Source: a virus
Taxonomy: Duplodnaviria > Heunggongvirae > Uroviricota > Caudoviricetes
IMG/VR virus record: IMGVR_UViG_2606217118_000001
Strand: one strand, 5' to 3'
Length of the DNA: 44,417 nucleotides
In this document: one piece after another, positions 19,052 through 30,258 of the stretch
How positions within the stretch are numbered: the stretch's first letter is position 1
Layout of the letters: every line of letters begins with the position of its first letter
Translations under genes and position numbers: made by a program
Notes under the pieces: model-generated
The model's database searches: none
Told to the model about the DNA's origin: nothing
What the model saw: the letters and a program-made list of their open reading frames with translations, nothing else

Positions 19052-20351
19052 TTACACTGGTGTGTTCAGCAAATCGTTAACGGCATCAGATGCCGGGTTA
19101 CCTGCAGCCAGCGGTGCCGGTGCCCCCTGCATCAGACGATCCAGCGCAGTGTCACTGCGCGCCTGTGCACTCTGTGGTGCAGCTGCCAGAATGCGGCGGG
19201 CCGTTTCCACGGTCATACCGGGGGTTTCGGCCAGCACGCGTGCCTGTTCTTCGCGTCCGTGAGCCTCCTCACAGTTGAGGATCCCCATAATGCGACTGTT
19301 TTCTGCCGCAACCGCTGCGGTGATCTGCGCGTTCACGTCCGGCTGCGCCGCGCTGGCGTTCTCGCCCTCCGTCGCTTGCACCACGCCAGTAACGTCAGCC
19401 TGCGAAGCAGTGGCTGAAACAGTTGTTGATTGAGTCTCTTTGGTCATTCGCCCTCCTGAGAGACGGGATTTACGTGCATCCAGTGCATCACGCATGACGG
19501 TGATCGCATCGGTACTGTTAACAAGTTCATCAGCCAGTCCGGCATCAATGGCCTCCTGACCGCTGTACACTGCAGCCTCGGTATCCAGCACAGCCTGCAC
19601 GGACAGGCCGGTATATGCCGACACCTTCTGTGCAAACATCCGGCGGGTTGCATCCATCCGGGACTGCAGTGTTTCCCGGACATCATCCGGTAGATGGCTG
19701 TAGGGGTTGCCATCCACCTTATGGCTGCCGCTGTAAATCAGCGTGATTTCCACGCCCTGTTTCTCCAGCGCAGCACCGTAATTACTGTGAGCCATCATGA
19801 CGCCGATGGAGCCTGTCCGGGCGGTCTGCGTGACCAGACGTCGGGAGGCGGCGCTGGCAAGCAACTGACCTGCACTGCAGTTCATGTCGTTGGCCAGCGC
19901 CCATACCGGCTTTATGTCACGCACACGGGCGATGATGTCAGCGCAGTCAAATGCCCCTGCCACCATCCCGCCTGGCGTATCCATATCGAGCAGAATGCCG
20001 TCCACCATCGGGTCGCTGGCAGCCTGTTGCAGACGGGCGATAATGCCGTTGTAACCGGTCATCCCCGAATACGGCTGCAGCGCTCGCGTCCGACTGACCA
20101 GCGTGCCGGACACCGGCAGCACGGCGATGCCGTTCATGACCTGATAACTGCGGGCCTGTCGTGGTCCGTCATCATCAACGGATAACGCCAGCGCCGCGGG
20201 TGCCTCTCCGGCAGTCAGGCTGTCGCCGGATACCGCATCCGTCAGGCGGCTGATCCCAAGCTGGCCTGCAAGCGCACAAAAGAAAACCCGCGCATAGGCG
20301 GGTTCAAGCATCAGCGGCTCATTAAAGGCCATACTGGCAATATGCGGGAGA

Positions 20352-20371
<20 letters not shown>
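19052..20371 (-). CDS. C: Capsid assembly protease C (scaffold Nu3 is the in-frame C-terminal part)
   Basis: ...TAELRNLPHIASMAFNEPLMLEPAYARVFF; start placed at in-frame GTG 19 nt before B stop, matching lambda gene layout. Confidence 0.9.
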
Positions 20372-24052
<3,681 letters not shown>

Positions 24053-27817: not shown

Positions 27818-28032
27818 TATCCACCTCTCGCAGCCTTGCGCTTATCTTCTTTAATCTTGAAATAAAGGTTTGTCAGGTACGTCAGCAGGCCAAATACCAG
27901 GCTACCCAGCACTCCAATTGCCGCCCACTGTGAGGGCGTGACTTTATCGAGCAGCTGTAAAAACCAGTACCCGGCACTACCTGCTGAGGTGCCATAGGCG
28001 ACACCCGTTGTTAACTTATCCATGGATTTCAT
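27817..28032 (-). CDS. S: Class II holin (pinholin, S21/EssD-like) with dual-start motif
   Basis: 71 aa [71 protein letters not shown]; two TMDs; Met1 and Met4. Confidence 0.9.
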
Positions 28033-28155
28033 AACCCCACCTCGCAGACAAAGCGGGTGTAAATTGAGGGAATACTACGAAACGTAACAGACTCGGAGTC
28101 AGTGAATAACTCAGGTATTGGGTTATCAGCTAATATCGAGACTCAAAAAATGGAA

Positions 28156-28190
28156 AAACCCGCTCGACGGCGGGTTTAAGCTGTGTGACG
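28156..28190 (-). terminator. Rho-independent terminator upstream of S (candidate tR' of short late leader transcript)
   Basis: Minus strand aaacccgc-cgtcga-gcgggttt perfect 8-bp stem followed by ttccatttttt. Confidence 0.6.
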
Positions 28191-28603
28191 AAGTAACCAC
28201 TCTTAACAGCATAACCAATTTTTTACGTACGTAAACCACTAAATGATATTTGCGAGAATGCTACCGAGTATTGAAAACACCACTACAAATACATAAGCAA
28301 ATCTCAACAAATAACCAACAAATAATTTCCAGCGTTATTTTTAGCTGGTTTAAATTGAATCTTCAAATTATAGAGCACTTATAAATAACAGCCATTAATA
28401 TAAATTGGCTAATAGATTTATTTTTATTCAGCCAAGAGCCATGAATAGGATTCGATAGAAAAAGTTCAGATAAAAATAGAGATCTACTTCACAAATCAAA
28501 TGAGAAACCAAAACTTACATCTTGAAATAATCACATTGATTAGATGAATATTTATCGCGCAGTGACATCATTTTTTAATAATAGTTCAAAAAAAGGGCTC
28601 ACG

Positions 28604-29686
28604 ATGAAAAAATTAACAGTGGCAATTTCTGCTGTAGCTGCATCAGTACTGATGGCGATGTCTGCTCAGGCAGCTGAAATTTATAATAAAGACAGTAACA
28701 AGCTGGATCTGTACGGGAAAGTTAATGCTAAGCACTACTTCTCCTCTAATGATGCAGATGATGGTGATACTACTTATGCCCGTCTTGGCTTCAAAGGTGA
28801 AACCCAAATCAACGATCAACTGACTGGTTTCGGTCAGTGGGAATATGAATTCAAAGGCAACCGCGCTGAATCTCAAGGTTCCTCCAAAGATAAAACCCGT
28901 CTTGCCTTCGCTGGCCTGAAATTCGGTGACTACGGCTCCATCGATTATGGCCGTAACTACGGTGTAGCATACGATATTGGTGCATGGACCGACGTTCTGC
29001 CAGAATTCGGTGGCGATACCTGGACCCAAACAGATGTATTCATGACTGGTCGCACCACAGGTGTTGCAACTTATCGTAACAATGACTTCTTTGGTCTGGT
29101 TGATGGTCTGAACTTTGCTGCTCAGTATCAGGGTAAAAATGACCGCACTGACGTAACTGAAGCTAATGGTGATGGTTTCGGTTTCTCCACTACTTATGAG
29201 TATGAAGGATTCGGTGTAGGTGCAACCTATGCTAAATCTGACCGCACTAATAATCAGGTTATCTACGGTAACAACAGCCTGAATGCATCTGGTCAAAATG
29301 CTGAAGTATGGGCAGCTGGTCTGAAATATGATGCGAACAACATCTATCTGGCTACCACCTATTCTGAAACCCAGAACATGACTGTTTTTGGTAATAACCA
29401 TATTGCCAACAAAGCACAAAACTTCGAAGTAGTTGCACAATATCAGTTCGACTTCGGTCTGCGTCCGTCCGTTGCTTACCTGCAATCTAAAGGAAAAGAC
29501 TTGGGTGCGTGGGGTGATCAGGACCTGGTTGAATATATTGATGTAGGTGCAACCTATTACTTCAACAAAAATATGTCCACTTTTGTTGATTACAAAATCA
29601 ACCTGATTGATAAGAGCGATTTCACGAAAGCATCTGGCGTTGCTACCGATGATATCGTTGCTGTAGGTATGGTTTACCAGTTCTAA
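28604..29686 (+). CDS. Outer membrane porin, OmpC/OmpF/PhoE family (phage-borne Lc/NmpC-like)
   Basis: Signal peptide [39 protein letters not shown]..., C-terminal ...VGMVYQF; AAGGG SD; longer upstream ORF extension rejected. Confidence 0.9.
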
Positions 29687-29711
29687 TTTGATTACTAAAA
29701 GATATGTTGCG

Positions 29712-29730
29712 GGAGGCTTTGCCTCCCCAA
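29712..29730 (+). other. Stem-loop (gggaggc-ttt-gcctccc) in porin 3' region
   Basis: Perfect 7-bp inverted repeat 26 nt after porin stop. Confidence 0.5.
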
Positions 29731-29821
29731 CATATAAGTGGCTCCCTCAAGCCACTTCCTTTAGGAGCACAACCTTGCTTCTAACTATATAAACCTTCTG
29801 TTATATATTACCCTTTATTTT

Positions 29822-29860
29822 TGGGGGCGTCTCAACGCCCCATTTTTAATAATTTTTAGT
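29822..29860 (+). terminator. Rho-independent terminator-like hairpin downstream of porin gene
   Basis: ggggcgtctcaacgcccc stem-loop followed by atttttaataattttt. Confidence 0.55.
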
Positions 29861-29874
29861 AAACAATTGGCATA

Positions 29875-30258
29875 TTAATTAGAGTTATTAACAACGATAT
29901 CCATCTCTAACCGGATATCTAATGCCATTAACATCCCTTCAATTATACCCTCAGCCTTCTGTAACCTTTTCCCGATATAACCATCAGAGCAGCAATGCTT
30001 ACCTGCCAGTGACATGAATGTCATACCGACTACATAATAATCTACTAATAAATCGTGCAAATCGCTGTTGTTCTTTTTCAGACGGGCCATGCACCCGCAA
30101 ATGATCATCGCGTCATCGTCACAACATTGCGGGCGAGATTTTACTTTTGAAGGAATTAATCCCTTAAAACCGGCGGCAATGGACGACCAGGTCACATCTT
30201 CATGATTATTAGCCGCCCACGCTCCCCAACGCTCAAGAACCATCTGAATATCACGCAT
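29875..30258 (-). CDS. Q: Late-gene antiterminator Q (DLP12 QuuD-like)
   Basis: Start at ATG giving [24 protein letters not shown]... (127 aa); track ORF begins at an upstream TTG. Confidence 0.85.

Follow-up and report, generated by a model that had tools for sequence, protein, structure and literature searches.

Organization of the locus

The window, by which we mean the whole stretch of 44,417 nucleotides that was analysed (IMG/VR virus record IMGVR_UViG_2606217118_000001, a phage of the Caudoviricetes), comes from a lambda-like prophage and has a porin gene placed between its antiterminator gene and its lysis genes. The antiterminator gene Q (30258-29875, minus strand) encodes 127 aa. The first late gene, also on the minus strand, encodes a holin S of the phage 21 type (28032-27817; Pfam Phage_holin_2_1, E 2e-35) and is followed by a lysozyme gene on the same strand (27817-27320). 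The intervening porin gene (28604-29686, plus strand, 360 aa; Pfam Porin_1, E 3e-153) is of the NmpC/Lc type and antisense to the late operon; related phages and PA-2 have it annotated as OmpD, NmpC or porin. The preliminary description of this DNA had proposed that an antisense porin gene separates Q from the late promoter, and that the porin promoter and the late promoter lie in the same divergent intergenic region; both proposals agree with the coordinates, the region common to the porin gene and the predicted late promoter (PR') being 571 bp long. Its holin-proximal part (28033-28144, minus strand) would be an untranslated leader running from the predicted terminator tR' to the holin start, and in pairwise comparison the sequence of this part is not common to porin-less relatives.

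The window Q matches Pfam PF06530 (E 8.5e-54), which is the Q21 family (PMC9388147). Among solved structures only those of Q21, 6p18 and 6jnx, match it (E 7.6e-8), and it is 79% identical to the Q of phage 933W. A Q21-family antiterminator is thus encoded upstream of the late genes on the same strand. Assignment to a phage 82-type Q was considered and rejected, as the Pfam and PDB matches point to the Q21 family. Phage 82 pR' is characterized by an initial AAA, GCC at +15 to +17 and a pause at +25 (PMC5001585), and a motif search of the region found none of these features.

The same gene order is found in DLP12 of E. coli K-12 (quuD-nmpC::IS5-essD) and in phage PA-2 (Q-lc-S). Window positions 28025-28300 differ by one base from the nmpC-essD region of DLP12, and the Q-porin junction has a 98% match in PA-2. 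However, nmpC of K-12 is split by IS5, whereas the porin gene of the window is intact. With 80% coverage or more as the criterion, 2,356 of 5,426 complete E. coli genomes (about 43%) carry the intergenic region. The arrangement is therefore already known, from DLP12 and PA-2, and the control cassette is of a known kind, that of the Q21 family.

A conserved module with the features of a late promoter

A sensitive DNA search with the porin-holin intergenic region gave two kinds of match. Full-length matches were found only in phages with the Q-porin-S layout (36 phage records), and an 83-bp piece matched several hundred Stx and other lambdoid phages. This piece, 28236-28154 on the minus strand, is 77-78% identical to sequence that is annotated in 933W and VT1-Sakai as pR', 'qut' and a first rho-independent terminator; in these two phages it overlaps the last codons of Q.

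Alignment with pR' of these two phages gives TTTACG as the -35 hexamer (28235-28230, minus strand). After a 16-bp spacer follows TATGCT (28213-28208, minus strand), which aligns with the annotated -10 of 933W pR'. Both hexamers are weak, with four of six consensus bases each, and fall under the 9/12 threshold of a simple promoter scan. Conservation is more telling at the -10 position: across 43 distinct upstream variants the first T is kept in 95%, the A at the second position in 100% and the final T in 98%, while the inner bases vary, and such retention of TAnnnT is what marks a -10 element of sigma-70. No TTGACA is conserved at the -35 position, which has a short palindrome instead. By homology to the mapped PR' of Stx phages, then, TTTACG-N16-TATGCT would be a sigma-70 promoter at the head of the late operon.

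The probable start site is also placed by homology. In the Stx phages of strain Sakai the PR' start was determined by dRNA-seq and the 3' end of the transcript, 258 nt downstream, by Term-seq (PMC7547250). The Sakai start coordinates in the StxS paper refer to an older version of the record, and the start was placed through the transcript length and the U-run: counting 258 nt back from the U-run that ends at position 993 of the 933W locus (L002) puts +1 at L002:734-736, 5-7 nt after the -10 TATCAT. These positions align with 28203-28201 of the window (minus strand), where we infer the PR' start, A28201 being preferred; the K-12 equivalents are positions 577,227-577,229.

The start site and the early transcribed region are covered by a near-invariant block, TAAGAGTGGTTACTTCGTCACAC (28205-28183, minus strand), which in the alignment covers the 'qut' of 933W. 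By analogy, the block is the expected site of a sigma-dependent pause element. The candidate pause hexamers AAGAGT, TTACTT and TACTTC each lack one key base and none stands out; the window has TACTTC and GTC in the pause region where 933W has TACATT and GCC, and contains no clear -10-like pause hexamer. Within the leader's first 20 nt, over the presumed pause region, most relatives could also fold a second small hairpin, GUGGU-N6-GCCAC. In the window (28184-28199) and in DLP12, GTC in place of GCC weakens this second hairpin.

The late promoter had been expected downstream of the porin gene, with PR' and qut in 28200-28600, and the interval had been proposed for a search for -35 and -10 elements and a Q-binding element. 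TTTACG, TATGCT and a candidate palindrome are located there by homology, so that a late promoter downstream of the porin gene is supported. The promoter lies, however, at the very bottom of the interval, and the transcribed block runs below 28200.

A palindrome that co-varies with Q

The palindrome that covers the -35 and part of the spacer is TTTACGTACGTAAA, 14 bp long (28235-28222, minus strand; about -34 to -21 relative to the inferred start). Its sequence depends on the Q subtype: the window and DLP12 have TTTACGTACGTAAA, 933W has TTTACGATCGTAAA, and other subtypes have GCGTACGC, GCGGTCCGC, TGTTATAACA, TGGAATTCCA or TTCGTTACGAA. The window and 933W palindromes differ at two central bases (ACGATCGT vs ACGTACGT). 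Over more than 50 Q variants, the palindrome co-varies with the C-terminal region of Q, which is putatively the part that binds DNA, and does so irrespective of the cargo in between. Because of this co-variation, the palindrome over the -35 and the spacer is likely to be the Q-binding element, and the window would thus have an allele-specific element at the position where Q is expected to bind. The pairing of palindrome and Q across loci L002-L126 also suggests a specificity code. The element recognized by Q21 is a direct repeat, TGAGCA twice (PMC6606751); the palindrome is an inverted repeat, unlike that of phage 21.

The hairpin and the predicted terminator

Immediately after the conserved block, the minus strand contains a hairpin, AAACCCGC/GCGGGTTT, with a perfect 8-bp stem (28177-28156) and a 6-nt loop, and directly 3' of the stem a U-run, TTCCATTTTTT (28155-28145). 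Hairpin and U-run together (28177-28145, minus strand) form the proposed tR', which was identified by terminator scan, folding and conservation. The preliminary description had the 8-bp stem right. It gave the span as 28156-28190, however, which extends 13 nt too far upstream and omits the U-run. Its distance of about 125 nt to the holin start is borne out, the end of the stem being 124 nt from the holin ATG (28032). Relative to the inferred start, the hairpin occupies about +25 to +46, and the predicted terminated leader would be about 47-57 nt long.

Taken alone, the hairpin is not beyond chance. Its predicted fold has -11.5 kcal/mol, the 63-nt leader folds with z = -1.55, and the terminator scan found three terminator-like sites in 2.7 kb against 2.2 expected. 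The significance of the hairpin comes from its conservation across relatives and not from the scan or fold statistics. A hairpin and U-run follow the conserved leader block in nearly all of 44 distinct leader variants, and in distant relatives a different GC-rich hairpin sequence substitutes at the same place. Homology to relatives extends to 28154, within the U-run, and stops there, which makes the hairpin part of the module. The scan found no other terminator-like site between the promoter module and S. At the level of sequence, 28177-28156 would thus provide the intrinsic terminator that in a Q21-family cassette comes soon after the pause region.

Several observations surround the hairpin. 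In one leader variant, that of 16 porin-type loci (L007, L021, L091 and 13 others), a G-to-T change in the 3' arm (GAGCTGG), at the position equivalent to window 28161, weakens the stem: the central pair is lost and the predicted stability of the leader falls from -16.0 to -10.4 kcal/mol. In this sublineage termination may be leaky. Rfam gave no family match; a sub-threshold match to Trp_leader, with 20.8 bits where the gathering score is 41 (E 0.4), is due to the terminator hairpin only. Elsewhere in the window, a 26-nt stretch at 20280-20305 on the minus strand is 92% identical to the 933W PR' hairpin. It was rejected as a second copy, as it lies inside an ORF for a gpC-like head protease/scaffold (20352-21953 region), and is a chance resemblance in coding sequence. 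Apart from this look-alike and the module itself, the matches of the window to the 933W PR' transcript are at chance level.

By analogy with Stx phages, the hairpin may be a leaky terminator, a caveat that arises from the mapped Stx PR' transcript, whose 258 nt show that polymerase passes the homologous first hairpin at least some of the time, and from the 16 loci with the weakened stem. Taken further, this leads to the most serious alternative to our reading, namely that the promoter is correctly placed and the hairpin is inefficient, acting as a leaky attenuator or as an element of RNA stability or processing. S, R and Rz would then be expressed constitutively at a low level, and Q would boost processivity further downstream. 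The interrupted U-run of the window, TTTTTCCATTTTTT, fits such a role. So would the reported finding (PMC7918800) that K-12 cells express functional DLP12 lysis genes, at a low level, even when uninduced. Nevertheless, the retention of hairpin and U-run in nearly all leader variants, with replacement by another hairpin in distant relatives, speaks against an inefficient element. The hairpin is, moreover, the sole terminator-like site before S, and phage 21 has an annotated terminator at the same place (+3 to +50). The Stx data themselves leave room for substantial termination, since RNAs of about 50 nt would be easily lost from standard RNA-seq libraries. We regard an inefficient hairpin as unlikely, but as deserving some weight.

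Linkage of the module to Q

The core motif of the early-transcribed block, TAAGAGTGGTTAC.T.G.CAC, has a single copy in the window (28193-28204) and is present in at least 120 viral contigs of IMG/VR. In 100 of the 120 loci listed, a homologue of Q, 40-100% identical, lies upstream on the same strand; in one more, the C-terminal end of Q lies 3.85 kb upstream, at the edge of the locus. The remaining 19 have less than 1.6 kb of upstream sequence. Q is thus found upstream in every listed locus with enough upstream sequence. The gap between Q and the module is variable: the two are 6-76 nt apart in 24 loci, the porin gene makes the gap about 1.67 kb in 34, and other genes make it 0.63-2.5 kb in 42, so that cargo separates Q from the motif in 76 of the 100 listed loci in which both were located. 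The window belongs to the separated class. Its module does not follow Q directly, the -35 beginning 1,639 bp past the Q stop codon.

The porin gene as part of an inserted cassette

Pairwise comparison with porin-less relatives locates the junctions. Homology extends through Q to about 29899-29926, breaks off, resumes at 28236/28235 and stops at 28154. The segment between the breaks, 28237-29899 (1,663 bp), comprises the final 8 codons of Q together with plus-strand terminators, the porin gene and a 367-bp A+T rich region upstream of the porin gene. The break at 29899 and the resumption at 28236 identify this porin cassette as an insertion between Q and PR'. On the sequence comparison, it is inserted exactly between the end of Q and the candidate Q-binding element, and replaces the last few Q codons.

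Between the porin gene and Q, the terminator scan finds an intrinsic terminator on the plus strand (29824-29851), GGGGCGTCTCAACGCCCC followed by ATTTTTAATA. On the other side of the porin gene, the K-12 nmpC/essD region, equivalent to window 28237-28603, is an H-NS-bound 'promoter island' (PMC3661553). The nmpC promoter has been deleted as -199/-210 to -1 from the start codon (PMC11677980), which corresponds to about 28394-28603 of the window.

Other candidate positions of the late promoter

The lysis operon of DLP12 is reported to have a Q-controlled promoter that lies downstream of nmpC, and the operon is described as controlled by both a Q-type antiterminator and RpoE; the reporter fragment for the promoter comprised -121 to +650 (PMC7918800). 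The forward primer of this fragment, Pdlp12Fw (-121), maps to window 28676-28657 and so implies a +1 at 28555, and the reverse primer maps approximately inside essD, for a product of about 770 bp. Just upstream of 28555 on the minus strand lies a sigmaE-like promoter, GAACTA-N16-TCACT (28587-28561), read from the sequence, which is apparently the position of the published 'essDp'. Rueggeberg et al. 2015 reportedly proposed a sigmaE promoter for the DLP12 lysis genes, and the -35 region of essDp is said to have mattered for Q-dependent expression. The published DLP12 numbering thus points to the sigmaE-like site, whereas homology points to the module, about 350 nt downstream.

It could be argued from these data that the late, Q-responsive promoter is the sigmaE-type essDp, with its start near 28555, about 520 nt before the holin ATG, and that 28236-28154 is a downstream attenuator or a relic. 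The distribution of the element argues otherwise. It is inside the porin cassette, and the region in its full length matches only the 36 porin-type phage records. The 24 loci in which Q is adjacent to the module and the 42 with other cargo have no such cassette and yet keep the 83-bp module. The sigmaE-like site does not travel with Q: being inside the cassette, it is absent from porin-less relatives that retain Q and the module. Nor does it have a palindrome that co-varies with Q, and its transcripts must still pass the hairpin at 28177-28156. Furthermore, loading of Q proteins of this family, as currently understood, requires a sigma-70-dependent pause (PMC6606751). We consider it very unlikely that essDp is the Q target. 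The site would rather be an additional promoter, or the cassette's own. For the record, the Term-seq supplements of PMC7815308 contain no essD or nmpC entry, and a literature search with the literal sequence returned unrelated matches only.

A late promoter that abuts Q (about 29700-29875) and is read antisense through the porin gene, with the hairpin near S incidental or secondary, would conform to the canonical layout of lambda, phage 21 and 933W and could draw on the several hairpins between Q and the porin stop codon, but it is scarcely credible: the minus strand of 29687-29875 has neither a promoter-like site by scan nor a copy of the core motif, whose single copy in the window is at 28193-28204, the sequence just past Q (29687-29960) matches, at the sensitivity used, 36 phage records only, all with high coverage and equal in number to those with the whole Q-porin-S layout, and hence goes with that layout and not with Q, and the strong hairpin at 29824-29841 has its T-run on the plus strand and so would terminate porin transcription.

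Comparison with phage 21, Stx phages and lambda

The closest known plan is that of phage 21, the member of the family studied by structure, whose Q belongs to the same family (PF06530) and whose promoter is likewise followed by an S21-type holin gene and a phage lysozyme gene. In the annotation of phage 21, the Q-binding element lies between the -35 and the -10, the pause element is at +2 to +8, and the terminator at +3 to +50 gives a leader of about 50 nt, as predicted for the window. On this annotated plan, a terminated leader of about 50 nt is normal for the Q21 family. The resemblance is one of plan and not of sequence. DNA alignment of phage 21 PR' with the window module shows no real similarity, and the two Q proteins have weak similarity, confined to residues 8-87. 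Phage 21 has a direct repeat (ATTGAGCA/AATGAGCA) as its Q-binding element, whereas the candidate element of the window is the 14-bp palindrome. The position also differs: the -35 of phage 21 begins 7 nt past the Q stop codon, whereas the window module is 1.66 kb away, behind the antisense porin cassette.

In Stx phages (933W, VT1-Sakai and Sp5), whose PR'/qut/tR' is the source of the StxS RNA, the promoter, 'qut' and first hairpin are homologous to the window over 83 bp. However, their cargo (tRNAs and stx) is downstream of the module, whereas that of the window is upstream. Stx phages also have a second terminator at +258, which yields the 74-nt StxS RNA. The window aligns to nucleotides 1-49 of the transcript only, and a homologue of StxS, the Hfq-binding 3' part of the 258-nt transcript, is not found at the window locus.

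With lambda PR', 6S RNA and tR', the window shares the presumed logic, in which transcription from a constitutive promoter pauses early and ends in a terminated leader unless Q allows read-through into S. The components are different: lambda has a Q of family PF03589, a leader of 194 nt and a PR' that abuts Q, whereas the window has a PF06530 Q, a predicted leader of about 47-57 nt and a distant PR'. The hairpin had earlier been likened to the lambda 6S/tR' leader. A terminated late leader is what the sequence predicts, but the 194-nt RNA of lambda is not matched in the window, and phage 21 is the right analogue, judging by family and layout.

A model for late-gene control

Taken together, the homology of the module, its linkage to Q and the co-variation of its palindrome make it very probable, in our judgment, that 28236-28154 on the minus strand is the module through which the Q21-family antiterminator, encoded at 30258-29875, controls the late genes. 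The module would comprise a sigma-70 PR', the Q-binding palindrome TTTACGTACGTAAA, an early-transcribed pause block and the terminator hairpin at about +25 to +46. RNA polymerase would start at PR' and pause in the near-invariant block with sigma still bound. If Q is not present, transcripts would be terminated at a length of about 47-57 nt. Once made, from early rightward transcription, Q would diffuse to the module, bind the palindrome and load onto the paused polymerase, which could then read past the hairpin into S, R, Rz and the virion genes. The porin cassette, with its own promoter region and terminators, would sit between Q and the Q-binding element, opposed to the late operon.

Cargo between Q and PR'

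The porin cassette is one of many. Across L007-L126 the gap between Q and PR' holds more than 15 types of cassette (e.g., in L016, L025, L115, L053, L012 and L114), and the cargo genes are almost all antisense to the late operon. A scan with a library of defence systems matched 5 of 10 cargo proteins; the matches include Kiwa KwaB (with a KwaA-like membrane partner), PDC-S20 (a KAP-type NTPase), PDC-M53, and PDC-M68 with an HNH-type effector. From these contents the gap looks like a hotspot for defence and lysogen-expressed cargo, and a limited literature search found no description of such a hotspot. More broadly, we suggest, tentatively and as a possibility that we would not yet favor, that throughout the QuuD/Q933W clade of Q21-family lambdoid phages the Q-stop/QBE junction is a general hotspot for lysogen-expressed cargo, that the subtype palindromes are a Q/QBE specificity code, and that essDp belongs to the porin cassette, with the sigma-70 module 350 nt downstream as the true target of Q in K-12.

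Implications

In the prophage region that about 43% of complete E. coli genomes carry, K-12 included, the late-gene switch would be the 83-bp module upstream of the holin gene and not a site beside Q. The porin cassette would then be outside the Q-controlled late transcript and convergent with early transcription through Q. This position and orientation predict porin expression in lysogens, with interference once induction has occurred. Work on the DLP12 lysis genes, in connection with biofilm and vesicles, could accordingly be aimed at the correct promoter. The gap between Q and PR' may be a place to seek prophage-borne defence genes, and the co-variation of palindrome and Q offers testable specificity pairs.
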